A stretch of DNA of 64,000 nt. Source: Catajapyx aquilonaris (taxonomy: Eukaryota). Positions within the stretch are counted from its first letter, which is position 1. Each line of letters opens with the position of its first letter. Positions 12,966-59,700 of the stretch are shown here, piece by piece. The stretch lies in assembly GCA_000934665.2 (NCBI GenBank), contig JYFJ02001697.1, positions 1 to 64,000 on the forward strand. Reading direction: 5' to 3'. The notes beneath the pieces were generated by a model. That model saw only the letters and a list, made by a program, of their open reading frames with translations, was not told the DNA's origin and did no database searches. The position numbers were made by a program, and so were the translations under genes.

Positions 12966-13140
12966 TAGTTGAATCCGGATATAACAGCCTCGGCTATAAG
13001 AGACTTTCGGTTATAACATATCGAAAGGCCGGCCCCGGAAAACTTCGATATATGGTTTGTGTATTTGGCTATAACAGACCTTGGTTATAACAGACTGATT
13101 TCCGCGGTACCTTGAAGTCTGTTACATGCGGATTAAACTG
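12966..13140 (+). mobile_element. Tc1/mariner-pogo-type MITE, copy 2
   Basis: TA|TAGTTGAATCCGGATATAACAG ... GTTACATGCGGATTAAACTG|TA; homologous to 12593-12747. Confidence 0.8.
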
Positions 13141-14708: not shown

Positions 14709-14853
14709 CAGTTGAATCCTGATATAACAGACTTCAAGGGAGAGCGGAAATCAGTCTGTTATAGCCGAATACACAAACCATACCGTATATGGAAGTAGGC
14801 CTATTGCCTTTCGAGTCTGTTATAACCGAGGCTGTTATATCCTGATTCAACTG
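14709..14853 (-). mobile_element. Tc1/mariner-pogo-type MITE, copy 3 (inverted)
   Basis: TA|CAGTTGAATCCTGATATAACAG ... CTGTTATATCCTGATTCAACTG|TA. The interior is the reverse complement of copies 1 and 2. Confidence 0.8.
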
Positions 14854-14877
14854 TACTGCTGCTACTACTACTACTTC

Positions 14878-14971
<94 letters not shown>

Positions 14972-15676
14972 GTCGTTTTTTTACTTCAAGTTGTTTTTTT
15001 TTTGGTGTGACCGTCACGCTGTATAGTCACTGGGGTTCAATAGCTATTGTCATCCTTCAAGGCTACCTGCGAGGGACCAGCTGGGTCCCCCTTTTCTTAC
15101 CTGCCTCTTATCCACCCCACCTGAAGATAAAGTAGGACCTCCAAACACCCTCTCAAAAGCCCCTCCCTTACAACCCCCAGCCCCCAGGCCAGGTGCTAGG
15201 TCCTGGTTTGGTAAAATCCACACACCGTTTTCCAAGCCATGTCTTGAGAATAGCGGTTATCAGCACCGGGTCTATCTTTAGAATCGGCTTGAGAAAGGAT
15301 GACCTCTTATAAAAGCAGTAGGGCAGACACCTCTGTGTACCTTTGGACCTATAAAAAATTTTTTGAGCTAGATTGTGGGAATTTCCGTTTTTAAAGGCAG
15401 GCGTGAGAACATGTTTATTAAATTCGGAACTCCTGTTAAAACACTGGCACCGTAATTGGGAAGCCGGCCATTTTTGCGCAGGAATCGCTTCAAGTTGTGC
15501 GAGAACAAGCGGTGTAGGTTTCTGATGGGAACCGCCAAGTCAGGTGCAAATTAGCAGGAGGGTACAATCACCTGAAATAGTGTAGCACATCTTATATATA
15601 GAATTGGACTCTGTCCGGAGTCATCTATGTGATGGATATGGTGCTACGTTCACACTGTACGATTTGCATATTGCCA

Positions 15677-18285: not shown

Positions 18286-19382
18286 AACGTGGCAGAAAGT
18301 GACGTTGAATGTAAGGACCAATCGGGGTAGTTATGAGCAAGCAAATAAATGAACAACAAGCTGATTTTACAGCGTAAGTGACAATAGCGTGGCATTGACT
18401 TGTAACTGTACGTGGCATGTACTCCGAGATGTACTCTATATTTACCGCACCTTTTTTTTATATGTGCGATGGGAATGTACGCAGGTTTAACATCAAGATA
18501 AGAAAGTCGATGATGGCGTCCAAGTCTTTTTTTTGTGCTGGAGCTTTTTTCTTTTTATACGTTAGCCTTGAGGCCACACACAGTCCGTGTCTTAAGAAGT
18601 TGACCCCCCTTGTGTAAGAGCCATAATAGCGAAATAAGTGCACCTCGGGTGGGTAGGACGATAATAGGACCATTAAAGTCGGGTTTTATCGTGTGGACTG
18701 TGCATTGCGAAAGAGGCTTGATTGAGTCATTCCTCGAGACAAATCGGAGTGTTTTTTTTTAGGGCAATGCAGATGAAGCGGTGATGAATAAGCAATCGGT
18801 ACCTACCGTTGTCTTGATGACAGTATCGCATTGATTGCGGGGTTCGCCTTGAACATGTGTATAAGGTCATAGTCTGCAGGCAACACCCTGCGTGGGTATA
18901 TCCGATTGTTTTTAGAATCATACATGGTAGCTAGTAGATACATGGTACATTTGTAAGCATCTTGATGAGTGGCGTTAAATTTAATTAGGAGCCTGGTGTG
19001 GACTGGTGTGTTACTATGTTATTTGGTCGGGAGGCTGTTGAGGATCAGATTTGTTATCGTTACGTTGGGTGACAGAGCACGCTCTACCTCTTTGGTCCTT
19101 ATCAAAAAGTTGTGCTCCATCTATGAGCGACCATTCACTCGGCACCTTATCTCGAGGCTGGCTGTAAACCAAGGCAGGTCTCAAGGGTTTGGTGTAGGAA
19201 ACGAGACACCAACTGTTCCTTTTTTTTCCCCCAAGGCACCCCAGGTCAAGTCCTGTGAGATTGACCATGCCTCCTAAAATGGGAGGGACTCCGACAAAAG
19301 GGGGGAACTGGCAAAGCTCATTCTGGTTTCACTTCTTCTGCAGGCAACATGAGTCCCTGGTGATTTTCTGGGAGAACCAAGC

Positions 19383-19523
19383 ATGACACCGACGCCGGTG
19401 ACATCCGAGCCTTGTGCTGAGACCGTCCAGTTGGGGGCCACTTCTAGGGATTCGGTGGCCTTCACCAAAGGACTTCTCAACGGACCTGGCCAAAACAACT
19501 GCTTCCTCAACAGTGCGGTGCAG
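19383..19523 (+). CDS. ec: USP53/54 first coding exon carrying the catalytic Cys box
   Basis: [19 protein letters not shown] with donor CAG|GTCAGT. Acceptor at 19343 and an in-frame TGA upstream fix ATG 19383 as the start. Confidence 0.9.
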
Positions 19524-22500
19524 GTCAGTCCAATTGTTGTTTCCATTTCTAAATCACGTTCGACCAGTAGTATAGAACCCTATTGTTTTTATAAGTAAGA
19601 CCAGTAGTGAAATATCAATGGAATAATTAAAATATTGCGCCCAGTAATTATTCCGGTGTTTGTCGTCGCCACATTGTTAATCTTCTTTCTAATTGATCCG
19701 ACTTTCACCGTGCAGTTCCTTGTGGGTCACATGCCAAGAAACGAGGTCTCACTTTTCGCATCACTTGCCCTAGCTGTTACAGTTTCCGAAATGGGCAAAT
19801 AAGCAACTGTTCATTGTTTGTTGTACTGGAAAAAAATAATACGACTTTGCCATATTTGGCCAGCGTTAAAAATAAAGGTGTACCCGGGTGTACCAAAAAT
19901 GTAATCCCATCAGGCATTGTGTGGAAATGACCATTCGTTATGCATTCTGCGAGAGATACCATCGTAAATAACAAGGAGGCAACAGCAGTGACTTGTGTGT
20001 GTGTGTAGATATGTCATTGCAAGGGGAAGTACAGGGTGCTTCCAAAGTACAGGGCTATTGAAGCACTCGATCAAATATACGCACTGAAACTACTGGATAA
20101 ATATGGGTGGAAAAAAAGTGATAAAATTAAATAAATGTACACACCGGAGCAAGTGCATAATTATTTGAATAATGCAAACACTAAGCAAATTAATTAATTA
20201 AACAGCTGAAATTTAAGCAAATTGTTAATTTCAAACAATACGTAAAATATGCAAAATAATACGCATTAATTTAATAACATAATAAAATCAATACTGTATT
20301 CCTATAAAATAAAATAAATACAAAAAATATTATAAAAATAAAATACAGAAAATAAAAAAATTACATACAAATTTAAATTAAAATAAAATAAATAACTATA
20401 AATGAGAAACGAAGCAAATCAGCAAGAAACTAAACTAGCAAAAGGGAAATAGATATTAATTCAAACAGTTGAATATTAACAGGTGGGTGCTGGAGTGAAC
20501 AATCCTCATCTGCTTTCCTCTCACTCCTTATCTTGAACTAGAAACTTTGGTGACTGTGTACACCACCCTGTAGAATCAAGGGCAGGGCACGCTCGACCCC
20601 TGGGAGGCACGTACGACCTCATTGGCCTTTTCTTTTTGTACTGTACACCTTTGACAACTCCGTGACCGGGAATGAGTCCTGTGAAATTGGTCCCCCCCTT
20701 TTGTATATAGCCTCGCACTTTTTGGGGGTGCGTGTGAAAAGGAAGGTGCTCTTGACGAATATATTTTTTTGGGGAAGTCGTGTGACATAAGGAAACCACC
20801 CAGTGTGAAACTGGTTCTGCCACCTGTGCTGCTTGCAAGAAGCGGATTAGGTAATGCTTAGTTTTGAAGGTTTCGTGTTTTTTAAAACTTGGAATTGTTT
20901 TGGCCACTCCCTTTTGCTGGCTTGTTAACCACGCCTTGAGCATTGGAATGGGACACGTGATCATTTTTTTTGGCCCAATGATGAGAGGTCGCGACCTTTT
21001 GGCCCCTACATGACGCTGGATTTCTGACAGACATAATGCAGTACGGCCTAGTGTTTATGGGAAGATGGAGGTTGTTTAAAAGTCACATAATTCAAGTGCA
21101 GGAATTTTTATTAAAACGCGATGTTTGTATATTCGTGAATTTTTATGGCGTACTGTATAACTATAGGCATTGAATTGGTAATTCAGTAATTAGGGGACGT
21201 AGCCAGACTTTATAATAGGATGTTGCGCTTCATAAATAAGGGAAAAGGATATTAAAATTAATGTCGTTACACGCGTGTGCAGTATGAAAAATATTATCAT
21301 ATGTGTACATTTTCCTTTCAATTATTATCGGTTTAAACAGAAATATTGCAGCACTACTCGACCAAATACGCACTAAAACCACTGGATGTAGTAAACAAAC
21401 TGATAAAATTAAGTAAATCGTACATCAGTGCCTTTTTATGGACATTAACTTTATGACTATGTGCATTTCCCACGGCATCGGACGACCCGAACCAATTATA
21501 GCAATTACTAGCATTGTTGCGCATTTCCCTGCTTTACAAAGAAATGGGGTATGAACATTTCCTTATTATCATAATTAATGGGCGTTGTCACAACCAGTGG
21601 ACAATAGGACAGCAGATCGGATCCCTACAAGCCTCATCCGTCCTTTTCATTAAAAATTTCTAACATTAGGGTGCCTCATTTTTTATCTATAGAAATAGCA
21701 GGTGGCCCAGTTTCCATGTCACAAGTGCTGACCAAACTCTTAGGTAACCAAACTTTATTGTCGATTAATTACTGTTGAGGAGCAGGTGAAAAGTCTTCCA
21801 CGATGAGCAGTTTACCTGGCTTTTTTTCCCATGGGGGTTGAGTAAAATGCAAATAAAACAAACTTCCGGCCAGTTGGGGGGAACCTGCATCATGGGAAGC
21901 TCGATACGCTAGCCTGATTTTCCATGTTGTGTGTGTGTGTATGTGATCCCCGGGCCGTGACATTACCTACGCCCCCGAGACTGCCCGGGGCCGTAGAAGA
22001 AGTGGAGGAGCAAAAAAAAAAATCCTATTTTTCAACGCGGTGAATTCATCACTCGCAGAAACGTTACTTTGAAATTAGTGTGTCACTTTTTTATGAGCGG
22101 TTCTCTTTACTAGGTGAAGTTGCTCCCATGGTTTTGATATAGGGAGAAGATTAGGTCTGTTTCGTTGCCCTATGCTAGTTAAAGTTATTAATTCAGCAAT
22201 CATCATTAGTGAATTATTGATAGATATGATTATTTATTATTGTTATTATTTTGATTGTTTGTTTATTAAGGTAATGACTAGTATCAATTACTTACGGGTT
22301 TATACTCTAGCGGTACTGTACAGTATCTCAAACGTGCTCGTAAGTGTTCCACCCCTTCAGTTCCTAGAAGTTGGAGTGAAAAGTGTGCGTTGAGATTTGG
22401 CAACATTGCTCACCTACAAATCCGTATTTTACATGACAGTTTTCAAGAACTGGAGCCCACCCACTCACGCCCAAAGTTTAATCTTCAGACTGTAAAAAGC

Positions 22501-25500
22501 AGCTTAAAGCTTTAAGTGCTTTTTAACTTAAGCAGCTTATCCGTCCTTAAGGACATATTGTCTCACCCTGTCGCAAAACTCTTCGGAAGCTGTAGGCAGT
22601 GTAGGGGAGTAGCCCCTTCCAATTAACCGAATATCACAACCGGCAGCTCTTACAAAATTTGCAAACAGTGATTGATTAGCGCTTCCATATTCGGCAAGGC
22701 ATAATCAACAGCTACCCGTATTAAGTCACGCCCAGAAATGGCTCGTTGACCTTTACTGACACCATGGGTATATACGTAGTTTGCTAAAAAGTGAGATTGC
22801 TGGGTTTCATCTTTTGGCGTGGGAAACAAGTTTTGGAAAAATAGTGGTAGTGGGGGAGGGCAGGTGTTGGGCAGTTGGGGCTTAGGTCCCAAGATGGATA
22901 CCAAGGTTAAGGTGAGGGTGAGAAGAAGTGTTCGTCACCTTGAAAAAGTCCCATTTTCCCACATATGCAGCAAACCGTGGATGACGCTGAGAGACATCAA
23001 GACGTGACAAGGGTTGGGTCCTGAGAGCATGGTCATCAACTATAAGAAACCCGATTCCTACATAGGGGAGGGTTTGTTTGAGGGTCGCAACCCTTGGCAC
23101 TAACTAAAAGTAACTATGCCGGAACCAGACTCCATAAATCTTGAGGGTCAACTGACACCCTGTCGTACACAACCACCCAGTGAGGACCAATTTTGGCGGG
23201 TACATGTGGAATGTGTCCACTTGCACTCAAGTCTGGAAGAGTATGTCCGGAGGGAGTTGGAGAGGATTTTGGGGAGGTCCAACCCGGATTTTGGGCAAAA
23301 CCCACCGCCAAAAAGCATTCCTTTGTTAGCTGCTCTGAACTGGAGTGAAGCGCACTTCAAATATCACCCGGTACTTTAGGACGAAATTCTGGACTAGAAT
23401 ACCCAATTTTGGAGTCGATAACTCAAATCTTGCTCAAATCTGTAGACCCGATCACTCAATTTTTAAGCGCTATATTAACTGACATAATTATACTCGAATT
23501 ATTTTTTGTTAATTAAAAAAACATTTTTCTGGGCAAATGAAGAACTAACATACGGTCTACTATTAAAACGCTTCCGTCATGTCGTGCCGCTATACTGTAT
23601 ATCCGCAGCACCATTGGAAGATGGATGGTACGGTGTAATTATAATTGAAACCACGCCAAACAACTTGCAGTAGCATTTCAGAATGAAGCAGCATGCGCCA
23701 TCTACTGATATCATGCACATAGAGGCTAGTAATGGCTGAAAATGTAACTGTACAAGTGTCCTATATATAGGACATCACGCTATTTTCCACAATTTGAGTT
23801 CATATACAACCGGTCTTAAATATAGTGTGCGCTATTCGTACATGCTGTGAAAGGCGATTTGCGAACAAGGCGCACATCAAGGAGGTCAGCTCGTGTAATC
23901 ACTTAGTCCTTCAATACCGTTCTCTCCATAACGGATTGTTGCAAGGCTATATTTAAACCTCAAAGGCAACGTTGTGTACATACGATTTGAGTGTCATGTA
24001 GAAGGGGAGCGTGTGCAAAAAAAAAAAAAATCGATCGAAGAGGGTTAATTTGATATGCATATGATCGTACAATCGGAGACATGTCGCCCTTAGTATTGTG
24101 GATCGAAAAATTAATTCCAAGCCCTTAGCCAATTTTTTTTTTACTAATTGACAGCGAAAATGTGGTTGGACTGGATACATACCGTGTGTATTTTTTGTGT
24201 GTTCAATACTCTTCGTGCCTAAATTGCGTGACATGAAGGTGAAATCGGTGAGGATCCATAATTACCAAGTCTGAAGATGAAGTCATAATAAAAAAATCAC
24301 GATTTTTGACACAACATATTACGCGGGTTGCGTACCCACTTCGAGTATTGAAGTCACTCGAAGTTGGGTCTGGAGGGCGTCACGTCTTGTACTTTTCTTG
24401 AGAAGGGTCGTGAACCTCCAGAGGGTTCTGTTTGGGTTACGGGGGGATGCTGAGGCGGGGTGGGTGGAAGAATATGGTGGCGTCCCCTTCGTTTTCAAGA
24501 GAGATGGCAACACTGTAGGTTTTTAAGTTCGTTCCCCCTTGGTAATGGTGGTGGTCGGCCCCTGGGAGGAAGAGGAGGAAGAAGAAGAAGAAAAAGAAAA
24601 TTTGGTTGGCAACAGAAGCGGTTGTTGCGGGAAAATGTATAGTGTTGGTGGAAGTAACGCTTGGGTAGAGATTTTGAAGCGGAGAATTTGGTGGGTAGTG
24701 TTAAAATCAGGCTTTAAAATTTGTTTAAAAAACGAGTTAAAGGTGTCGTAAATTTCGGTGTAATTTTTAACTAATTTTAAATAAAAGCATACATATTGAA
24801 TCGCACAATTTTCTGAGTATCGCTCAAATATCATTTTAATGCAAACAATTTTTGAAAATTGGCTCAATTTCTGAGAAATTTTAAAGGGAAATCTGTCAGG
24901 GAAGCGGTACAATATTAGCTAATTTTAAAGCATTTTTTTCAAGCATCGTACAATTTTCTGCGTATATCGCGAAAAAATCAATTTGATGTAAACTATTTTT
25001 TTGAGCGATACGTAGAAAATTGTCTCAATACTTTCCAGCCATTTTCTAAGTCTGTCACATTGAGTCGAAATTTACGTGAAATATTTTTAAATTGCGATGA
25101 TCATCGTGACCATCGATGCACCGATGCTACAGGGGACAGTCCCGTACATTTGCACTTCCTGGATAGTTTCAAGCCGGAAGCACACACTTGAAGACAATGG
25201 AGTTCCTTGTGATAAAAACCTTAGCAAACCTTTTGGATTTCCCCCATCCAACCCTCACCGATTCCAATCAGTGTTACTGGCCCATTTTTGTGTGCACCTT
25301 AAGTCTCACCTGCCCCCGCCATATAGTCTAGCACCTGCCTCCAAATCTCAGAAACCCGAGTACCACCTGTCCTTTTTTGGTTTCATATATAGGGATGCAC
25401 CTAAAATCTCTGCCTTGAAAAATCTGAGTCACCTGGCTACCGAAGAAAAACCTTGGACCTGAAGAGACCCATCCCCTCCAGGGGTCTTCTTCTTCACGCT

Positions 25501-28500
25501 CAGGTGCCCTCCTTCAGCACTTTGCCCTTCCTCTGTCCCCTACCAGAACTGCAGGGATTGGACCATTAATTATATTTGTTCCATCTGCAGCCTGAATCTG
25601 GGGAAGACGCCATAGGGTGGAAAAAAAGAGATGGTGATTAATTCTGGAGTGTGTTTCACGTCTCAGTGACTGGGAGGTCACATTTGAGCAAGCACAGAGT
25701 TTGTGTAACAAAAGAGCTGACCGTCTGTGTTACAATGGCAAGAATCAAAAGTGAGGAACAGATATTACTGTAATACGACATACCCGGAACTATTCAAAAG
25801 TCAATTATCACCTACTGGTATAATAACAGGAAGAAACTGTATTTCATCATATCCTGTGGCTTAACTTGTGTTTTTTTTGTTCTTTCTTCAAAATACTCAT
25901 TAAAAGATCAAGGCTTGGGAGGAGTAAGACATATCACTTTAAAACAATTCGAGTGTTTTCCCACTCGATCACTTTAGTGGAAAAATTCACCCAAATTGAG
26001 ATTATTTTCAACTCAAACTAATTGGATTTTCAACTCAATTTGAGCGAAATGACCATCAGCACTCAATTCGAGTTAAACCACCACTCTAATGAAGCTAAAA
26101 TGGATTTCACTAAATAAAAGAGTAATCTCCCCTTCGTTTTCACTCTTCTTTCGAGTAATTTTTCACTCGATGGAGTTGAAGTAAATCTTTGCGGAGTGAA
26201 ATTCACTCAAATAAAGCATTTTTGAGTGACATTTTAATCGGAAAATGTTTAGCGAGGACATAGCTAATACTCACACATTTATTGCATATCATATTAATAA
26301 AATATTAAGAGCCTGTGTAGGGGGTAGTAACATCATATTTTAATTACAATATTTTAGTATTGCCAAATTGCAGCTTGAATGTGACACTCTCATGTTATTC
26401 ATAATTTAGCCCAAATGTGACATAATATTAGTTCTGTAACAGATTATTTCAGGGGAAAAAAAGCTTCTGTCCATTCTTGCGCAACATTATCGCCCTATCA
26501 TTCTTATCATGTAGTTGTAATAGATACGCTCGATTGAACATATATCTCCTTCTAAACCGATGGGACGCGAAACGGATGGGACTTGCAATATACGAAAAAA
26601 AAGAAGTTTTCCACCCCCAGGAAATGAGAGGGCAGCAACATCCGTTTGAAAATGGCGTTTTTCACGATGGGGTTAGATTTAGGTTGTATCTTCACCCAAA
26701 TTGGGGTTTTTTGCTTGTGAGTTGTAGGGCAAGCAGTCAGGTATGACAAAGCCGGTGACCAGACAACAGGTTTTGTCTATATTTTTTTTATAAATTTTGT
26801 ACAGTGTACAGATTTTGGCAGATTGATATGAAAAAGAAGGAAGGTCAATGTGCGAAATGTTTCCGGTTAGTGTCCGATCCTCGCATGTGAGTCTCCGCCC
26901 TGTCTTACGTGCCCTGGAGGTGGGGAGAGACGCTTGAGAGATGGGTGGTTTTCTTGTCGCAAAGTCGTGAATATAACGGAGGTTGTAGTGAAGACGTTTT
27001 TTTTTGCTGGTAGTAACGGAATTCTGTGCGTCGCAAATATGTACTACTGTAAGTACATTAAATAAACAAATAAATCGAACACTCCTACCCCAGCCTTATG
27101 GAGCTGTACCCATAGGGAGTGGGGTTTCCGCTTGGGCGCTGTAGTTTCCAAGTGTGTGGCGATCCTGGCGGACGATTTTGCATCCATATTGCCTATCAAA
27201 CACAAAATTATATGCTGGCGCAACAGTCTTCCAGTGATGAGTGCAATGCCTCATAGCATGCTAGTACTGTACGTTAAGTGCAGCCTATCCCAACTGGTTT
27301 TTGGCACATCCAGTACTACAAGGCAACGGTGCGCTACGTACTTGTGAAGTTCTGTTTCCTGTATTTCACACGGGTCCACCGCATTTTATCCTGAAAATAC
27401 CGCACCCTTCTTTGCAATGCAGTGTCAAGTGGTTTGACACACATTTTGCCACCATTTTGTCACACTTTTAGCTACGAATAAGTTCACTGGTACAGAAACC
27501 GGTTGTATCGCATACAGAAAATAGTTTTCACCCCCATTGTTGTCAATGGTTGTCAACAATAAGTATGAAACTTTTCTGGCTTCATGTGCAGAATTGAGCC
27601 ATATTGGTCATGTACTTTCACTGCATGCATGGCCTTCGATGTTTACAATCTTTTTTTTCTTGGAGGTGCCCACAACCTTCCTCCCCTCGTCCCAGGTAAA
27701 GCCAATGGACCCGTCCCTTAAATCCGAGCTTTCCAAAGGGGCAGGTGAGGCCAGGTAATGGTGGTGGTGGTGGGGGTTTACCTTGCAAGAGAAGCAGGCT
27801 CTGATCGCCTCCAGCAGGTTGCTTTTCTTATTCGGAAAAGTTGGCTCGAATTTTAAATTCGCTATATTTGTTGTTCACCATTTTTTTAAAGGGGGTGTAC
27901 AGGTGGGGACAGTTGTTCTGGGGGGAACTGTATGGATAGGGGTGGTCACTCATACGTGTACAGGTGGGTCAGGGGAGGGTTGGTCACGCTTTGGTTGTTG
28001 CTGTGAGGCCAAAGCATAGCCCCTGCCAATTTTTACCTGGCTGGAAGGAAGCAGTGTCCCGGGAGAGTGAGCTCAGTTCAGGTGGTCCTTGGACCTAGTG
28101 GTTGGTTTAGGGACAAAAACCAAGTAGTGGACACTTGGACCATGCGACATAAACTTGGAAGTTCAATGGTGCAGATTGGAAAGGTCAGTTCAATTTTTAT
28201 TTGCCGCGCAAATTTGGTGACGTGTGCACATGGACGCCATTTTGTTCACGAAAATGTCCCGTTGCATTGTACGGCATCAAAGACAAATATCTTCGCTCGG
28301 TTGGTTACAAACTTTGTAAGACAAAAGGACGGTTTTAAAGTATATCCTGGGTGACTCACAACGTTTTCTTGTGTTTGAAAAATGGGTTGGCGTCATCGTG
28401 TATAAATCAGTCTGTAGTTGGAGTGGAACGCACTTTTGGTTCCATTTATATTTTCGACGCTCTTAGGCCCTGGAATGTGTAAGAGGGTGAAAATTGATCC

Positions 28501-31500
28501 GATGTTTTCGTGTCCGTGTCAAGAACAGGGGGGGAGGCCATAAGGGCAGACATGAAAGTGGCCCTTTTTCCTGGAAATCTAGCGATTGAGACCGGTCTTT
28601 GAACCGTGTCTAATGATGTTAATTGCTGGGTATAAGGACCATATTGCATTTTGGTTGTAATATCTTGGATAACCTCATTACGCAAGAGTGGCACGTTCTA
28701 GCGATCGAATGTGTGTACAGTACATATATTTTTAATATTATTGTTTGTTCGTGTAAACGTGACTGATTGCAATAATGTTAATGTGACGCTTACTCACAAC
28801 AATGTGTAACTAGCGAGAATTCAACTGGAAATGTGTACATGTGGCTACATGGGGGGATGAAAATTTATATTATTTTGATAGCTAATTTCTGGTGACCTAG
28901 CAAGATTGTTTGTTGTTAAATTTTCAACATAATTTTCTTCTAACAATTGAGCAAATAAACAACTAAAATAATAACTAAACATCTATCAATTGTACAAGTG
29001 TCCTACATGTAGGACATTAGACAAGTCTGGGTTAATAAGGAAAATAACTGATTGTATAAAATAAAAATTACATAAAATAATTTGATCAATCTTTGCTTGG
29101 TAAAAGAAGGAAGATGCTATAATCTGGGAGTATATACTACATAAGAGGCGCAAACATTCGATTTCCGCGTCTCTCTGTTTGGGGCGTTGCCAAGGCTGGC
29201 GGCCATCTTGAAGTGTGTGGAACGCCAACGAGGTATAAATAGGGTACATGCAAAAATAGGGTCCCCATCTTAGATTCGCGCGTGTTCTTGCCGTGTAGTT
29301 GCCATGGCCGCCAAAACCATCAAAGATGGCGGACCCTATTTTTGCCTGTACCCTATTTATACCTCGTTGGCGTTCCACACACTTCAAGATGGCCGCCAGC
29401 CTTGGCAACGGCCCCAAACAGAGATACGCGACGAACATCAAAGGGCCGACAGAAGTTTGCGTCTCTTATGTAGTATATTATGCTCCCTGCTATGTCCATT
29501 GAATTAATTCATATGACCTCAGATTGGATGGCATTTGATTACACATGCTTCAACAATTATTATTAGAACTTTTTTAAATACTTAGCACCACCCTGTCCAG
29601 TTATGCCTTGGGTGTATTTTTACCCACGATTGAGAGAATTAATGACAGGCTTCTAAAAACCGGTTAATTTACATTTTTCAACACCTTGGGTCCTCCCTCC
29701 GCCCAAAAAAATCTAATTTCCAAATTTTGGACATTTTCAGGTACTGTGGCACCTGGACATATTCCGTCGCAGCTTCCGAGAGTTGTCCGGTCACACCTGC
29801 CTGTCCGATTCCTGCATCTTCTGCGCACTCAAGGTACGTTTGAAATACTCCAAGTACTACATAATGATAAGGGATGGGGTCATGTGGTCACGACCCGCCC
29901 AAGGGTTCATTATTCCTCCCAGTTGATGGGGGTCCTCCAGCACAAGATTTTCCAGCATTTCACATGCTGGTAAAAAGTCGCGTGCAGGAAGAAGAGTTTT
30001 TTTGAAACCTCGTAGGGGGGGTGTTTTTCCCACGGGGTTTTTGGAACCATGTCTGCCACGCTGCTTTGCTTTTGAGCTTCCGGTAAACAAGCGCTTCACC
30101 AGCTGGGAATTGGTCAGGTGGGGGTGAACTTTTTTTTATAGGCGTCCAATTTTCGAGTGGACAGGTGAGCAGGACTGGCCACCAGGTGATATGCGTCATG
30201 CGATGTGTGTCACCTGTTGTGGGGCATTAGGTAAAATGTTACATGTGCAGAGGGGGGGATTACACACAAAAAAAATTAAATGGGAGGTTACGGCACGTGT
30301 ACTCTAGCTCTGGACATTAATTTTTTGTTTTAAAGTTTTTAGGCACGTGGACCTTATGTAAGTGGGTGCCATGTGTTGGATTATTTTGACGAAATATCAA
30401 AAGTACCTGAAATATTAGCACCCCCCGATTGACTCATTTCATGAATTGTTTACTCTTATTGGCTTGTTTGTCTAACCAGTGACATTTCAAGCGGAAAGGC
30501 CTTCAACTAATACGTCTTGAGACAATTTTACGCTCAGTCTGCGTCAACCTATGCTGCTAAAGAGGTCGTACACAAAAGTAGTCACGCTGTTGCTGTGTTG
30601 ACTGCAGCGTGACAGTGCGTGACGTTGGAGGCATTCGCTGAGCATGTGCCCAACATTTCCGCAAAAAAAAAGAAAAATACGATATTTGCGTATAGGGGAA
30701 TTCACTTATCGTACCTATGCCTCAAAAAATCCAAAATGTCGATAGAGTCGACGATAGGCTGATTTGCAAATTTTGATCCACATTTCCATAAGAAATGCAA
30801 AAAAATATATATCCATTTTTAAATAACCCCCCAAATTTTGAGAGGGCTGATTTGCAAATCATAGATCGTACCATAGGAGTATATATAAATTTCAGGTGTT
30901 GCCAACTTGATCCGAATTAATCATATGGCGAAACTTTCTCATGATTACACCACAATAAAACAACAGTGAGAAGATGTCTCGATGTTGACATTCGTAGTCC
31001 TTTCACCTTGTTCTCAGCTGGAAGCAAAACTTGCTGGCTGGTAGTAAGTTTGGGGAGTCCCACCCCCCTCCCCAGACAGAACGTGCGACATAATAATTTA
31101 CACCCACCCGGCCTTACCAAGCTGGGATCTATACAAGGCGTGCTGTGGCTTCATCTCCCGCCATAATCTGGCGCCAATTCCCTGGAAGGTAAAAGGGGTA
31201 AATGGCCCTGGAGAGACTGAGAAGAGAACGTGTTTGAACCGCCATCTTGATGCGAGGTTGTCAGACTTTGTTTCGCGCCAGTTTTGCCCTTCAGTAGGAC
31301 ATAGAGTACAGTGTCTGAAGGTTTGGGTGGGGCCAGTCAACCCCTTCTAAGATCTATATGGGCGGGGTTGATCTGGAAAAAAAAGGACACGATGGCGCCA
31401 TCGGCAGGTCACAACTAGTTGCAATGTACTAATTGGCCCTATTTGAACTACGAACATAAGAACAACTGGACAATTAATGATGGTCGTTTGACGTATACGA

Positions 31501-34500
31501 AGAGTGATCTTCCAAGTGGGGGCGGTCAGACTGATCCTTAACTCTTCAGTCATCCGTGGGTCACGGGCCGGTTGGTGTGACCCTCGAGATTTCTCATGGG
31601 TTGAGTAAATGCGCTGTTAATCCAACCGGGACCTAAGTTTTTTTCAGTAGTTTTGCAGACGAGACAAGGAGTGAAAGTTTTTGCAATTCTCTATAACATA
31701 TAATGTAACGTTGTCGTTATTTGCAAAGTTGCTGTTCTTGTTCGTGGTAAAGGGCTCCCGGGAAGTCATGCGCGTGAGGTCAGCAGGAGCCGTAGTCGTG
31801 ACCTCTACGCATGTTACTGTGGTGTTGAGATAAGGACAAAAATTGGTCGCGTTCATACTAAGATTCATCAACTCGGGTTGACAGTTTAGGTCCATTTCGT
31901 GCCTTGTTCATTGTCAATGGTGTGTGACATGTGTGGACTCGGCCTGTCAGCAAAGCTCCAGTCATTTCCATATGAAGAAACATGTATAGTCGTGAACAAA
32001 AAAATGCATGTTGACACACTTGGTTATGCAGCCATTTTGGATCCACATTGTTGATGTAATAGGTGGGTCATTTGAGTGTTCCGCCATTTTGGATCCAGAT
32101 TTAGACGCGGAAGGGTGTGTCTCTTTTTGTTGGCGACGGTACGGCTCCTTTAGCATTTGACAACACGGTGTCCGCACGTGACAAAAGGAGAGCAGAGTCG
32201 AGGCCACGATCACGATTCTGTATATAGGGGTGGGAGAGAGGAGAAAACCGTGATGAGATGCGCGGGAGAACGTGAGCCAGGCCCCTACTACATAACAAAA
32301 CAAAACAAAAAAAAAAATAAGAGGACCTTCCAGTTCTTAAAAAGAGACCAATGATGACTCAGAAGATTTGTCGTGATCGGAGGCCACGAGCACTTTGGCT
32401 TCAGAAATTGATTTGCTGGCTGAGACATAAATGGAGCTCGTGTGAAAGCTTGCCTCTATAGTACGCGTCACGATTTATTTGTAGAGTACTGTACAAACCA
32501 GTCAGGGTATCCCCACGAAAAAAAAAAATCATTTACATAAAATTTTTATTGTTACGTAGGATTCAAAGGAACCGTGGCTAATTTAATATATTTTTTTCGG
32601 TTCTAAGGGTACTTAGCACTTTTCCTGCGGTTTTCTCACATAATTGTGTAATCACACTGATCTTAGCTAACCTTCTAGGAATACTGCGGTTTGCCCCCAT
32701 TTTTGGTCGCCAATTTTTTGAGCCACAAAAAAATGGCGTAAAAGTGAAACCGTCGTGGGATCTTTGTCGCGATCCAACCAGGCGTTTCTATAGCTTGCGT
32801 AACTAGATCAAGCACTTTCAAACGTAGCCAAAATAATGCCTTTGTTATCAGGCTCCAAGATAAGGTTTGATTGTGCAAAAAAAAACATAAGATGGACTTT
32901 GGATCCTTTTAGCTGAGGCAAGCTTGGATCAAGGGCACACGTTGTGTTTTTCGAGGAACTGATGCTCAGGTATTTCCGGGATGTACAATGTTGCCGAAAG
33001 TACTTGCGAATTTTTTATAATGTAGAGAGTGCTAAGTGGGTTTGTTGAGGATTAGTGGTGTCAAAAGTGTCCGACACCACACCGGCTGTAGTTTCTGCAA
33101 CTGATTTTTCGGTATTGTTTTATCCTCAGGATTTGTTTGCTCAACTGCAATACAGCCACGAGTCTGCGCTGCCACCGGATACTCTTCGAAGAGCTTTGGC
33201 TGAAACATTTTTCAACCAGCAGCGTTTCCAGCTTGGTTGTATGGACGATGCTGCCGAATGTTTCGTAAGTTCCCTGTTCATTATAATAATAATTATAAAT
33301 TCTGTGGAAACAATGACAATCATTAAGAAGGATATTCCTTCATGTACCTGCCCGTGGGGAACACTTTCCAACATTTTGAAACAAACAAGAAAACACCTCA
33401 GGACACTTGTTTGAAGCGAGATCTCACAGTTCTGTAGATAATAATTACAACAATTTGTCTTGAGTTGGTGTGTCATATTTTGCAACAACAAGTAGGTGCC
33501 TCGGGTCACCCTGAAGCGAGTTTCCAAGACCTTGAGGAATACCAGGAAGAGTGAGGCATTTCGCCTACTATAGCACTCATCCTTTTCTAGTATAGAGACC
33601 TTGCTATTTGAATTATTCATTCAGTGAACTTTGCATGGGTGTACAATTCTATTGATATAAACCAACATTGTTGTTTTTGTCATATTGGACCAAAATGTAA
33701 TGAAAAATGGAGAAATATTTTTGTATTGGCTTTTGTTGCTCATTTTTATTTTTTCCATAGGAGAACATCCTCCTCCGTATCCACTTCCACATTGCGAGTG
33801 GAGAGTCCGAGGACATGTGTAGCAGCCTGGATTGCATTCCGCACCAGAAGTTTGCCATGACACTGGTGGAGCAGAGTGTGTGCGGTGCCTGCGGTGCCAC
33901 CTCGGAGCCGCTGCCGTTCACCCAGATGGTGCACTATGTGTCGGCTTCTGCTCTGACAGCACAAGCACAGCATGCGTCTACCAGAGGTACCTTCAGTCAG
34001 ATGCTGCGGAGGGCTGGAGGAATGGGCGACATCAGAGATTGCCCTGTAAGTTGGGACTGTTGGGAAGCATAATTTGCATTTAGTAACATTTTCTGATCGC
34101 CATAAGCCAAAGTATTCAAAACATTATTTTTCTTGTTGCTTTGAAGATAAGAATTTGAACTTATATTTACTCAATAACGTGGTCAATGTTGGACATCTTT
34201 TTCCATATACAGATGAGATCATGACTTTTGGGACAGTGAATGAAAGTGTTTGGTGTACTGTGAGCAGATTGGTAATTGAACTTTATTTTTACAGAGCGCA
34301 TGTGGTGCCAAGATTCAGATCTGCCGAGCCCTGATGAATCGTCCCGATGTGGTTGCCGTTGGAATCGTGTGGGATTCGGAGCGTCCAACCCTCGAGCAGA
34401 TAATGGGTGTGTACGGTGCAGTGGGCACCTCCTTGCACCTTCGCGATGTCTTCCACAAGGTAGTAGACGAACGCTGGGCAACGCAAACTGCTCACCAGCT

Positions 34501-37500
34501 GGTTGGAGTGGTCACCTACTATGGGAAGCATTACTCCACCTTCTTCTTCCACACCAAGTTGAGGGTTTGGATCTACTTTGATGATGCCAGTGTGCGAGAG
34601 GTTGGTCCCAGATGGGAGCATGTGGTTGACAAATGCCGAAGAGGGAGGTGCCAGCCGCTGCTGCTGTTGTATGCCAACCCACAGTTTGGATCACTACCAC
34701 GAGGAGTGAGCCAAAGAAGGGCAATTACCCCGAATCCGGAGCGACCTGGAATGGAAACCAAGCCGCGTCGGGCCATAACGCCCAATCCTGAACACAACGA
34801 GGATGATCCTGTGTACATATCTCGGAAGAGAGTTGAAGAGGTCTTGAACTACCAGAAGCAGCAGAGTCGAAAGGTGTCACCACCAGATGGTTTGCATGTA
34901 CCGGATGCTGCAAATGTTCCAGGACGACGTGACTCTGGGAACTGGAGCGGTGATCGCAACAGTGCATCATCATCCTCCTCAACTTCTCTGGAGAACCCAT
35001 ACGTATTTTTGGTTGGACGTCAGGCAGCCAAGCCCGCACCAAATCCTCAAGACCAAGGGTACGACTCCTTCTCATTGTCTTCCAATGACAGCTATCACAT
35101 ACAACAAGGGCTGAAGCACAACCTGCAGCTAAGCCAGATTCCGGAGGACCAGGCAACCAACAACCGAGGCATTTACCAGGCGAAGGTGCCAACACCATAT
35201 GTAAGCGACGACTGTGAGAAGCTGTGCTTGGAAGCAGACCACCTGCTGGATAACTCCAGGGCAAACGAGGAGTCCGGCGATCTTCAAGCTGCTCTCCAAC
35301 TCTCAAACATGGCTGCCCAGAAATCACGGGCTGCGATGGATGCCCCATACAACAACCCCCAGATGATGACCTTTGCACGCATGAAGCACAATGCTTGTGT
35401 GGTGAGGTCGAGGTCACTGTACCGTCGTCTGGTGTTGCAGAATGGTGATGGCTCCATTGTGCAACCGGTGGAACAGCCAGAGGGACGTCACAGCAGGCAA
35501 GGGAGCCGTGATTCGGGGAAGCACCGACGTGACTCCAGCAGTTCCAACAAGGACAGGGATATCCAGAAGGCAAAGAGCATTGAGATATATGCTACGTTGC
35601 CGAAGAAAAAGGGGAAGAAGGAGGGCCTGTATGCCGACAAAGCCAAGTTGGCCGAGTATTTTGGGAAGGAGCGGAAAGGGGTGGAACATTCAAATTCCAA
35701 ATTATCTGACCATTCCAAGATGTCCAAACTGACCAGCATGTCCACTTCTAAACTGGAGCATGCCAAGGTGTCCGATCATGCCAAGATGATTGCAAAGGTG
35801 GCCAACCGCTCCTTTGAAGATGACGACCAGACCAAGGTGGGCGGCAAGAAGCAGCACCGGATACGCCGGAAGCTTCTGATGGGTGGTCTCATTCGCCGGA
35901 AGAACCGGTCAATGCCTGACCTACGTGAGGACCAAGATGGTGCCTCGTCAGTAACGAAGAGGTCATATGAGGAGCCAGTCGTTTCATCAACCCCTCGCGA
36001 AGCCAAGTCTGGTTATTTGTCTGAGGGACATATGGAGTACTCCAATCCAAACCTGGAACGCTCCAGGCTGATGCGCAAGAGCTTCCATGGCAGCGTTGGC
36101 AAATGCAATGGTATGGCGCCAAAGGTCCCGCCACCACCTCCACTCCGGACAACCTCACAGCTTTCCCCGCAGCGTTCAATTGAGGACCGTCCGCCCTACC
36201 CTCTTCCAACGGAGGCAATGCTACCGACACCCAGTTATCCGGCAACCATTGGCAGCACGGGGTATCAATCAAATCAGATCGTGGTACGAGCTGATGTCCA
36301 CCGACACAGCCAGTTGTCAGTAGCATCGATGGCACCTGTGTCCGAAGACCCATTTGGACTACCACCATATCCACAAATCCCACCGAATGCATCTCACTCG
36401 AGGCAGAGCAGCGAGGAGTTTCCTCCACCGCCCCCACTGGACCTAATGGAGGAGATGACAAAGCAGCAGGTCATGCAACCGCAACAGCTCCAGCAGCCCC
36501 AGCAGCCGCAGCAATCATCCGAAGCCCCAACCGGTAAGATTAATGAATCCCATTGTACGTCACAAGCTTTTTACTCACCGATCTCTCACCTGTGAGGTCA
36601 CTCTACAATACAAATCCATTAATCATTAACTTGTATTCCAACAGGAGAGACATGGCTGAGAGAGCTCCAGGCTGCCCTGAAGATGCGCAGAATGAACAGC
36701 GACATTGGCCCCACGTCATTTTCTCCACCTGCTGCTGATGACCTGCCAAAACCATCATCAGTCAAGGACCTGGCCTCGCAGTTTGAGAAGATTAAAATGT
36801 CAACTGGCGGAGAGGATGTGGTCGATGGAGCATCCAATCGCAACCTGGCTGACCAATACCGTGCTGCTGTGGGTGGTCCAGACAACAACAAGCGTGGAGA
36901 CACCGTCTTCAATACCGGTGTTGTCACGGTGAAGAAACGAGAGTGCTTGGACCAGACTGCTTCAGCACCTGCGGCAGGAGCGGAGAAGAAGAAGAAGGCG
37001 AAGAAGAGTGTAACTTTCTGTGATCAGGTGGTGTTAGTGGCAACCGCTGAGGACTCTGAAGAAGATGGGTACATTCCAAACCCGATACTTGAGCGCGTGT
37101 TGAGGACAGCCTTCCAGATGCAGCAGCAACCAAATTCCATACCTGCATCATCATCATCTCAGACATCGTCTTCCCATACTTTACTTCCGTCCAAACCTTC
37201 TTCTTCCCAGGCATCTCAATCATTACCTTCTTCCCATGTGTCCCAAGCGTTACCTTCTTCCCAGGTGTCGTCTTCCCAGTTACCGTCACCTCAGGCTGTA
37301 CTGCCAATTCAGACATTACCAACTGCCCAGCCAGCAATGCAACACTCATTACCACAGCAAGCGCAGGGCCCATATGTGCAAATGTCACGACCCTTCCCAC
37401 CGAGGCAGCCTCCACCTTACCAAGCCCACCGTTTTGCCCATCCTCCGCCGCCTCCTCCGTCCCAAAAGTGCCAACCGCATCCAAGTGGGGCAATCAGCAG

Positions 37501-37750
37501 GCCGCAAACATCAATGGCCACTCACCAAACAATGCCTGTGCACCAGGCAGCCATGGCTACTCATCAGGCAGCTATGGCTGCCCATCAATCGGCACTGGCC
37601 AACCACCAGGCAGCTATGGCCTCACACCAGGCAGCTCAACAGCCGACAATGATTCGTTGCCACTTGTGCAGGAAGCGACAGATTGCAGCACCTGCCATGT
37701 ACTGTCCCGATTGCGATTTTTACATGTCGAGGTTCAAGCCCAAGAAGTAA
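19383..37750 (+). CDS. ec: USP53/USP54-family ubiquitin-specific protease (echinus-like), 1332 aa; exons 19383..19523, 29741..29833, 33130..33264, 33761..34045, 34295..36533, 36645..37750
   Basis: Spliced: [184 protein letters not shown]. These are hallmark USP53/54 motifs. All introns are GT-AG with consistent phases (0,0,0,0,1). Confidence 0.93.
23116..23370 (+). CDS. Candidate alternative first coding exon of the USP53/54 gene (85 aa, no Cys box)
   Basis: ATG ORF with protein-like composition ([17 protein letters not shown]) ends at a phase-0 donor CCG|GTACTT, compatible with exon 29741. TATAAGA at 23041. Confidence 0.45.
24760..25090. repeat. Degenerate repeat (probable MITE remnant) with recurring AATTTTCTG(A/C)GTATCGC motifs in both orientations
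   Basis: Motif copies at ~24805, ~24950 and inverted at ~25000. Confidence 0.4.
25936..26257. mobile_element. Degenerate MITE-like element with many ACTC(A/G)A / TTGAGT sub-repeats
   Basis: Dense cactc/gagtg motifs; CACT-type left end, eroded right end. Confidence 0.4.
29126..29487. mobile_element. Fold-back MITE with ~145-bp inverted arms
   Basis: gggagtatatactacataagaggcgcaaac...ggccatcttgaagtgtgtggaacgccaacgaggtataaatagggtaca is mirrored by tgtaccctatttatacctcgttggcgttccacacacttcaagatggcc...gtttgcgtctcttatgtagtatattatgctccc. Confidence 0.85.
29741..29833 (+). CDS. ec: USP53/54 exon 2 (missed by the ORF track)
   Basis: ttttcag|[31 protein letters not shown]|gtacgt; 93 nt, phase 0/0. Confidence 0.92.
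33130..33264 (+). CDS. ec: USP53/54 exon 3
   Basis: cctcag|DLFAQLQY...MDDAAECF|gtaagt. Confidence 0.92.
33761..34045 (+). CDS. ec: USP53/54 exon 4
   Basis: ccatag|[10 protein letters not shown]...IRDCP|gtaagt. Confidence 0.92.
34295..36533 (+). CDS. ec: USP53/54 exon 5 (His box plus long disordered tail)
   Basis: ttacag|SACGAKIQ...YYGKHY...YFDDA...EAPT-G|gtaaga. Confidence 0.92.
36645..37750 (+). CDS. ec: USP53/54 last coding exon (KSVTF motif, C-terminal CxxC..CxxC)
   Basis: caacag|[16 protein letters not shown]...[16 protein letters not shown]...[11 protein letters not shown]...[22 protein letters not shown]. Phase 1 matches the 36533 donor. Confidence 0.88.
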
Positions 37751-56770: not shown

Positions 56771-59700
56771 TCATTTCTGCGCTCCTATGTTTTCAGAGAA
56801 GCTCTTGAGGTATGCTTCGAATTCTTCCATGACCGCGTCGGCTTGGTCATTTCCTTTGGACGTCGTTTCTTGGTATTCGGCACCGGGTTCGCTCAGGTAC
56901 GTCGCGTCTCCGTACGACTCCTGACTCGTTTCAGGTCCGCTGACGTACACTTTATCATAGTCGGACTTCAGAAGTGCTTCGATGTCCAAGTTGGTCGGAT
57001 CCTCCGTGGTCGTCTGCTTCGTCGGGGTCGTCGGAGTGTACGTCCAGAGTCGGTCGGACGCGGCATGGTTGCTGGTACGTTTGTCCTTGCTGTCGTACAT
57101 GGACGAGTAGGACGGACCGCGGTTTCGGACGATGTTCTTGTACGTTGCGGATGGTGGTACGAACTTGCGGAACTTGTGTCGGTTTCGGAGGAAGTTTGGT
57201 CTGGCTGTGGTTGTGGTGGTCGGTATCGGAGATTCGACGTTTGTGTATTCGGTAGATGTCTCGATGCTGTATGTACCGTCTTGCGTCATGGTTGGGTCCA
57301 TATGGGTCGAGGTCATGATAGGTCCTTCAGTGGATGTAGTGTATATCTCGACTCTTTCAGGTGTTAACGACGTGTACAGTTCCTCAGCTGGGGACGTAGG
57401 CGACGGGAACACGTACGTCGTTGGCGGTGTGTTGGTCGGGCGTGTAGTGTCATACACTTTGATCACATGTAAGTTGTTCGGTCGTCGTCCGATGTTTCGA
57501 GGTAGAGGCTTCGGTGCTGTGTTGTACGTCGTCGGTTGCGTCGGTGCAGGTGCCGGAAGACGTTTCTGTTGTCGACGTATCGGCTTGTTGTAATCGTAGT
57601 TGTCGGTGCTGGACCTGTACGTGTTGCTGTAATACTGTTGGTACGGTTGTGCAGGTGCGTAATGGCTTGACTTCGGAGGGTCGGAGAACACTGTCTTGTG
57701 CGGAGGAGGCTCGGTGTACATGGCCTTTGGATTGCCGCCGAAATGATGTGTGTTCATACCGTCGTTGTAGTGATGCATTGTCTTGCTGTCTGTGTAATGG
57801 TGTACCGTTTTGGCCGAACTTGGTACGCTGTCGGGATAACGGTGCTGCACTGTCTTGGTCGGGCTTGGCATACTGTCGTAGTGATGCACCATCTTGGTCT
57901 GGCTTGGAATACTGTCGTAGTGATGCATTGTCTTGGTCTGACTGGGCATACTGTCGTAGTGATGCATTGTCTTGGTCGGACTGGGCATACTGTCGTAGTG
58001 ATGCACGGTTTTGGTCGTACCGGGTTCGCCGTACGGATGTATCGAGTACTGGGCCATCGGCTTCGGCATGTCGCTGTAGTGGTGCATTGTCTTGATCGGA
58101 TTTTCAGCATACACAGTCGGCGTGGGCCTGTGCAACGCATCGTTGTAATGATGCACCACCTTCGCAGGTACACGCACGCTCTCTGCGAAGTGCGGCATTG
58201 TCTTCGACTGTGTGGCCACCGAGTCCGTGTACGACGACGACATTGCCGAATCGTGCAGCATATCGGCGCTGGGTCTGAAGCTGGTCTTCATCCCGTACAA
58301 GTTCATGTTGGTGGAGTACGGAGATGTGTAGTACGCCGACGATGTTGAGGTCTGTACCGGTGAATGTGTCGGTCCTGGTGGCGGCGGCGGTGGAGGCGGA
58401 GGTGGCGGTAACGACGGAGGACGTCGACCATGCCTGTAGTTCCGATGCTGTCTTGCATACTCAGGGTACGGCCCGTCGTGAAAGTGCTTGTGAGGCGGAA
58501 ACGACCTGTACGGCCTTACGTCATTAGGCGACGCGTACCTGTAATAAAATTATTAAAAAAATTATTTAAAATATTAAACGCAATTAATACGGGGTCGTAT
58601 ACCTGTACGAGGTCTTGTGACTTCTGGAATGCGAGTCGTAGTACCCTCCTGGCTCGTACGGCTGTAGGTCATAATCGTTGTATGACTCTGAATGGTGCGG
58701 ATCACTATTGAACTCCCTGTGGTGATAATGGCCGTGATGGTGACTATGCGGATGGTTGTGGAAGTGACCGTGACCGTGATGGTGATCGTCATAGTGGTGC
58801 ACGTGGTCGTGGTGTCCGTGCGGTTCTTCGTGATAGTAGTGGTGGTAGTGATGGTGCGACTCTTGGATCACCCTCTGGGGCGGTTGAGGCTTGCGTCGTC
58901 GACGTCTCTTCGGACGCCTCACCCTGAATGTCCTCCTGCCCGTGGGCGGCCCTCGAGGTCGACGGCCCCTGGGCCTGCGAGGCCTGATTGGCAGCATACG
59001 TCGAAGCATCACTGTCGAGTCCAACGTGTCGTTGATGGCGGTTGGAGATGGCGTCGTTGTGGCGGGTGACGCTTCGTAGGTGGCGTTGGTGTCGTTGGAC
59101 GGCCATGCTTCGACCTCTGGTGGTTCGGTGGTGGTGAAGAAGATGGTGGGTGGTGTCAGCTCTTCGGTTGCTGACGTGTGCAGTACTTGGAGCGCGAACA
59201 ATACCGCTCCCTGTACAAACAAAAACCGGTTTAATTAATTGACAGCAACAAAGCGTTAATAAGAGAGAAAGTTGGTCTTGAAATGTCGCCCAAATTTTAT
59301 GTACCGTGCTAATCATTAAATCTTGGTGGCGCCATCGGCAAAAAAGCGAATCGAAGTGATGAATTGCAGAGACACAATAACGTTCGTGGCGGCGCAAGCC
59401 AACGAACGTTATTGTGGTTCTGTCAAACCAATACATCGCTTCGATTCGCCCTTTTGCCGCTGTCGGCTTGTGGCGCCACCAGGACGTACGGCACTGTACT
59501 TTACATCTTCAGTACGAGCAGAATTTACTAATATGACCCATTTTTTCTTCTTCATAAAAGTCATTGCAATGTCGCTTCTCTATAAATCCCATATAAATCC
59601 TCCGAAAAGCCTAATTGCACCAGAAAGCTTATAAAATCCGGATGATAGTTACTAGGGAAAATATTGCCCATAAAAGTGCGGTTGTATAGTCTAGATTTGA

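Follow-up and report, generated by a model that had tools for sequence, protein, structure and literature searches.

The window analysed here, the whole of a 64,000-nucleotide stretch, comprises positions 1 to 64,000 of contig JYFJ02001697.1 of the Catajapyx aquilonaris assembly GCA_000934665.2. Between about 19.3 and 37.8 kb its plus strand carries a single gene which, by its sequence, is an arthropod orthologue of echinus, of the USP53/USP54 group of ubiquitin-specific proteases (USPs). The catalytic cysteine lies in a small first coding exon, exon 1A, followed by a long intron. A 14-codon open frame inside this intron, at 28142-28183, is probably a real alternative first coding exon of this species, which we call candidate exon 1B and which lacks the cysteine (Cys) box; it resembles known exons of this kind to a moderate degree, and how closely varies with the score applied. 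An earlier sequence-only reading of the same DNA had proposed a possible cassette of several alternative first exons here, each replacing the Cys box.

USP53 and USP54 were long classed as pseudo-enzymes, and are described in PMC12037411 as active K63-specific deubiquitinases whose activity needs the catalytic cysteine, cysteine mutants being inactive. According to Copeland et al. 2007 (PMC1950886), Drosophila echinus makes three forms. The Cys box is present in SF1, whereas SF2 and SF3 have other N-termini without it, so that the sequence-only reading was right about Cys-less forms in the fly. According to the same paper, these forms arise from distinct 5' exons, made of untranslated region (UTR) plus coding sequence and spliced to a common 3' part; the downstream primer used in reverse transcription PCR (RT-PCR) was common to SF1 and SF2, which indicates that both join the same next exon. 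Overexpressed SF2 and SF3 rescue the eye phenotype, and shorter forms without key catalytic residues are also mentioned there for human and mouse USP53/54.

Gene structure and orthology

The coordinates of the gene and of the other features discussed are collected in Table 1. When orthologue N-termini were compared with the window by tblastn, exon 1A was matched with 60 bits (E 2e-15) and exon 2 with 69.7 bits (E 1.2e-18). The nucleophile cysteine stands in the context G-Q-N-N/S-C-F-L-N-S that marks USP53, USP54 and echinus (family C19), and the encoded peptide is identical to one orthologue over 28 residues (E 2.3e-15). The Cys box is restricted to this one first coding exon, which ends in phase 0 directly before VLWHLDIF, as in the echinus layout. 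The boundaries given by the sequence-only reading for the Cys-box exon, for the phase-0 intron of 10.2 kb and for the acceptor at 29741 were all verified.

Table 1. Positions of exons, candidate and rejected frames, and a repeat (window coordinates; a slash marks an exon-intron border; CDS, coding sequence)
Feature	Positions	Strand	Remarks
Exon 1A	19344..19523	+	CDS 19383-19523, 47 codons, Cys box GQNNCFLNS; donor CAG/GTCAGT
Exon 1A, 5' UTR part	from 19344	+	starts at acceptor cag/G
Intron 1	19524..29740	+	10,217 nt, phase 0; contains five candidate frames and repeats
Open frame, unsupported	22894..22911	+	6 codons, MDTKVK; donor AAG/GTGAGG
Open frame, rejected	23116..23370	+	85 codons; weak donor CCG/GTACTT
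Open frame, rejected	24545..24742	+	66 codons, GAA-repeat (poly-E) run; donor AAG/GTGTCG
Open frame, rejected	26576..26740	+	55 codons; donor CAG/GTATGA
Candidate exon 1B	28142..28183	+	14 codons, without Cys box; start context gaccATGc, donor AAG/GTCAGT
Inverted repeat in intron 1	29178..29417		87-nt arms, 97% complementary, 66 nt apart
Exon 2	29741..29833	+	31 codons ending CIFCALK; acceptor ...ttttcag, donor AAG/GTACGT; common acceptor for first exons
Exon 3	33130..33264	+	45 codons; 203 homologues, best 91% identity
Exon 4	33761..34045	+	95 codons; blastp 78-84% identity to orthologues
Exon 5	34295..36533	+	His-box part of USP fold and long low-complexity region; phase 1 end ACCG/GTAAGA
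Last coding exon	36645..37750	+	stop at 37750

The downstream exons point to the same family. Named homologues of exon 3 are arthropod echinus or 'inactive USP53/54' proteins, and the residues of the His-box stretch of exon 5, including YFDDA, are invariant in the orthologue alignment. Exon 5 alone gave a sub-threshold match to Pfam UCH (E 0.0033, 17.5 bits against a cut-off of 23.9), and a search with the whole region reached E 8e-142 to proteins named echinus or USP54. Over exon 5, no protein in the collection searched comes closer than about 50-54% identity, so that it contains no close relative of this species.

Sequence reads from the locus were available from a single public run, X1, whose kind is not on record. 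One of its contigs starts to match exactly at the 19344 acceptor, and the 97 letters that precede this point do not match the window, which makes a non-coding upstream exon likely. The same contig runs unspliced over the 19523 donor into intron 1, as far as 19578. Low-depth cover extends over exon 1A and 2.5 kb into intron 1 (19344-22069) and has its loose end at 21946; it may stem from pre-mRNA, from the end of an intronic transcript or from carried-over DNA. The stretches 22070-26738 and 27406-28739 are without cover, the contigs contain no joints, and cover of the gene increases in the 3' direction. The UTR part of exon 1A holds a four-codon upstream open reading frame (ATG...TGA, 19349-19363), whose reading frame differs from that of the main ATG at 19383.

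Cys-less N-termini in other animals

We inspected the N-termini of 260 orthologous proteins. In 53 of them a Cys-less N-terminus joins directly to VLWH[LV]D.F, and the join point, before VLWHLDIF, is identical in all those collected. Many carry the name 'isoform X2'; the arthropod Cys-less isoforms are mostly automatic database predictions. A recognisable tail, usually 13-25 residues past the Met, is present in 41 of the 53 (40 distinct sequences), with examples such as ALFQITK, ALFQISK, ALFQIAK, ALYQITK, AVFQVSR, ATYQVAK and ALYHSAK, and with AFFQTCK in Diptera. Tail-bearing proteins were found in insects (Hemiptera, Blattodea, Orthoptera, Hymenoptera, Coleoptera, Neuroptera, Lepidoptera, Ephemeroptera and Diptera) and in crustaceans (decapods, one stomatopod and Artemia). 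The known arthropod exons of this type, for instance in Lycorma, Cimex, Rhodnius, Zootermopsis, Periplaneta, Procambarus, Panulirus, Oratosquilla and Artemia, encode a Met-initiated basic peptide of about 13-25 residues whose tail follows the pattern small-hydrophobic-aromatic-Q/H-x-x-K/R directly before VLWHLDIF.

The fly form SF2 appears to belong to this type. The SF2-specific primer printed in PMC1950886 encodes, in our own translation, NIGAFF, which corresponds to the dipteran tails ending in NIGAFFQTCK, and this indicates that SF2 and the arthropod Cys-less tails come from the same type of exon. Furthermore, seven fish USP54 proteins named 'isoform X2' start with MRSIQYE, lack the Cys box and join before VLWHLDIF, so that the Cys-less junction is common to arthropods and vertebrates. 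The fish peptide has no sequence likeness to the arthropod tail; only the junction is common, and this does not show a common origin.

A third type of N-terminus joins at exon 3 and bypasses exons 1 and 2; it starts with MLKWIKVRQ in Hymenoptera and with MIKFRYKRK in Diptera and Coleoptera, and probably corresponds to the fly SF3 type. When these N-termini (type C) were compared with the window by tblastn, no counterpart of an SF3-like first exon was found; all matches were at chance level (E > 0.07), and the most similar stretch, at 20329-20352, has no Met.

Candidate exon 1B

The frame at 28142-28183 lies 1.56 kb upstream of exon 2. Its ATG has an A at position -3, its donor hexamer GTCAGT is identical to that of exon 1A, and its peptide ends in SMVQIGK directly before the GT. 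Like the arthropod Cys-less exons, it encodes a short peptide (14 residues) with a basic start, MRHK, and a tail, S-M-V-Q-I-G-K, at the shared junction. Unlike them, it has Val in place of F/Y/L, and Met and Gly at positions where none of the 40 distinct sequences has them.

When all 1978 ATG-initiated frames that reach a GT on both strands of the 64-kb window were ranked by their mean BLOSUM62 score against the known tails, this candidate came first; its score was reached in 11 of 300 shuffled introns. Eight frames in the window, two of them on the plus strand of intron 1, have 10-30 codons and a donor that agrees with the consensus in at least 8 of 9 positions, and among these eight the candidate has a tail score of 12.5 and the next best 0.67. 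A frame combining tail score, donor and length arose in 1 of 1000 shuffles; when the tail was scored by log-odds matrices, the number was 2-5 of 1000. A residue-class pattern for the tail, which on the plus strand matched at 28183 only, had been widened after the candidate was seen; it is circular and we did not use it as evidence. As regards a second ATG-initiated first exon of the echinus type, BLOSUM62 and composite scores are favourable, and HMMER scores and log-odds scores with no donor filter unfavourable or neutral, as detailed below.

Other open frames of intron 1

The five frames that the sequence-only reading had listed in intron 1, each starting with ATG and ending at a phase-0 GT, are all present. 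Frames of this kind carry no signal as a class, since the plus strand of intron 1 holds 148 of them and 300 dinucleotide-preserving shuffles of the intron gave 154.4 ± 15.6. The GC-richer islands in which the candidates were said to lie were found for four of them (GC content 0.48-0.52 against a mean of 0.41, with a CpG observed/expected ratio mostly below 0.6), and not for the frame at 26576, where it is 0.36.

Codon usage was scored as a log-ratio trained on the exons of the gene against its introns, and real exons that were left out in turn reached 0.20-0.38 per codon. The frame at 23116-23370 scored 0.018, below the 95th percentile of equal-length stop-free intronic frames (0.032). Its peptide gave two weak matches (E ≤ 0.001) among 1.84 billion representatives, neither of them to echinus; both lie in the repeats of a tandem-repeat protein (Pfam DUF6486), and on the query side they extend over residues 52-85 only. 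This frame was rejected, as were 24545-24742, with a codon score of -0.448, and 26576-26740, with a codon score of -0.338 and no Pfam family. The frame at 22894-22911 has a good donor and is too short for the codon test; its peptide is unlike any known echinus N-terminus, and we regard it as unsupported.

The tblastn comparison of orthologue N-termini with the window gave no match in an intron besides exons 1A and 2, and the four frames other than candidate exon 1B resemble none of these N-termini. A Pfam search of intronic open reading frames on both strands gave nothing relevant, the one sub-threshold match being to a phage methylase (26679-27095, minus strand). These four frames look like chance open frames.

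Discussion

The exon and intron anatomy of the gene, its orthology and the wide spread of Cys-less N-termini at this junction are observed, and on balance we favour the view that the locus has the two-first-exon layout of Drosophila echinus, with 28142-28183 as its Cys-less first exon. As with SF1 and SF2 of the fly, an exon with the Cys box and one without it would be spliced to the same exon 2 junction. Compared with the fly forms, the Catajapyx candidate is a prediction from sequence, its tail SMVQIGK is divergent, and no SF3-like exon was found in the window.

Several results weigh against this assignment. In the main rival reading all five frames are non-exonic and 28142-28183 resembles the conserved Cys-less exon by coincidence, the species having either the Cys-box form only or an alternative exon elsewhere that went unrecognised. 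The composite of tail, donor and length was set after the candidate had been seen. Position-specific log-odds matrices used with no donor filter place it only at ranks 3-24 of about 1900-2000 frames, which could be chance given the 148 frames in the intron, a number at the level of the shuffles. A local HMMER profile of 40 aligned known exons gives it -0.4 bits and rank 533 of the 1589 peptides scored (2296 submitted). Four of its seven tail residues (S, Q, I and K) occur at those positions in orthologues and three do not; no intermediate linking SMVQIGK to ALFQITK was found in the protein collection, which holds no close relative; and its codon-usage score of 0.066 is uninformative at 14 codons. 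No spliced read or contig was seen in run X1, where the candidate lies in an uncovered stretch, and the cluster representatives of two Daphnia species among the homologues are Cys-box forms. Against coincidence stands the combination of tail, 8/9 donor and length on the right strand of the right intron, matched in only 1-5 of 1000 shuffles. Furthermore, a Cys-less exon occurs in almost every arthropod order sampled, so that its loss would be the exception, and the scan of both strands of the whole window gave no better candidate. We regard the absence of any alternative exon among these frames as unlikely, although it keeps appreciable weight.

A true cassette, in which intron 1 would hold at least three alternative first exons under separate promoters and the gene would make several Cys-less proteins with different N-termini, is very improbable. 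It could draw on the three forms of Drosophila (PMC1950886), on the third N-terminus type of insects that joins at exon 3, on the good donor of 22894-22911 and on the position of four candidates within GC-richer stretches. However, the codon usage of the longer candidates is non-coding, the 85-codon frame has no echinus relative among the 1.84 billion representatives, tblastn with orthologue N-termini finds no match in the introns besides exons 1A and 2, and the number of frames equals that in the shuffles. The idea of a first-exon swap in the sequence-only reading is sound, and already known from the fly and from orthologue N-termini; its extension to five exons is not borne out, only 28142-28183 resembling a conserved exon, and the several pseudo-enzymes with different N-termini that it expected find no support in these results.

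The comparison with variable-first-exon arrays also goes too far. In the clustered protocadherins and in UGT1A, the promoter chosen determines which first exon is spliced to the common downstream exons, and the first exons are numerous, paralogous to one another and each coding for an entire domain. In the present gene the first exons would be short, unrelated and no more than two or three in number, and the analogy of a cassette overstates the case.

Taking 28142-28183 as this species' copy of the Cys-less exon, two promoters would lead to two first exons that share the phase-0 acceptor at 29741. Exon 1A would supply the Cys loop with the nucleophile cysteine, and thereby the enzyme form. Exon 1B has a separate ATG and presumably also a separate promoter within intron 1; it would be transcribed and spliced to the same acceptor, and its product would retain the remainder of the USP fold as well as the long C-terminal region, without the catalytic cysteine. 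We infer a promoter, a transcript and a catalytically dead product for exon 1B in this species; inactivity is predicted from the loss of activity in cysteine mutants of USP53/54 (PMC12037411). The product may still act through binding, as the rescue by fly SF2 and SF3 suggests (PMC1950886).

More tentatively, the Cys-less first exon may be an ancient switch kept by selection in insects, decapods, a stomatopod and Artemia, with a junction shared with fish USP54; this switch would make a built-in non-catalytic form out of a K63-specific deubiquitinase. The conserved tail (hydrophobic-aromatic-Q-x-x-K) might replace the first turns of the catalytic helix, the fold surviving, and Catajapyx would have a strongly diverged copy, SMVQIGK. 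In a structure model of one Cys-less orthologue (mean predicted local distance difference test score, pLDDT, 47.5) a helix of residues 4-29 spans the tail and runs into exon 2; at a pLDDT of 51-56 this helix is too weak a support for the replacement, and we take it as a lead only. Since USP53 and USP54 are active K63-specific enzymes (PMC12037411), a conserved, promoter-driven isoform without the nucleophile would amount to a natural catalytic-dead control within the gene.

In the literature searched, Copeland et al. 2007 alone ties echinus to Cys-less forms, and that paper states conservation within Drosophila only (PMC1950886). The layout itself is not new, having been published in 2007 and being widely annotated, and the window is probably a further case with one likely alternative first exon and no cassette. 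It reveals no new mechanism; its practical value is for annotation, with one extra first exon to seek and four to ignore.

Other features of the window

In run X1 the inverted repeat of intron 1 reaches a word depth of 43 and shows loose ends at 29126 and 29182; its CpG observed/expected ratio is about 0.9. The repeat structure together with this depth suggests that the stretch of about 29.1-29.5 kb is a repeated element, probably a hairpin-forming mobile element; it matched no Rfam family, and Rfam and tRNA scans of the whole window gave nothing. Upstream of the echinus gene, exons of an ERCC1/Rad10 DNA-repair gene lie on the minus strand at 1235-2075 (Pfam Rad10, E 2.1e-30). Single N letters occur at 12564, 16054, 18067 and 52248. 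Long trinucleotide runs at 12800-13000 and 14800-15000 read in one frame as poly-Asn and poly-Tyr. At 56771-59234, on the minus strand, two long open frames of 592 and 216 amino acids have a high content of His, Pro, Tyr and Thr and contain repeat units such as KTMHHYDSMPS; they matched no Pfam family and may belong to a gene for a structural or secreted repeat protein.

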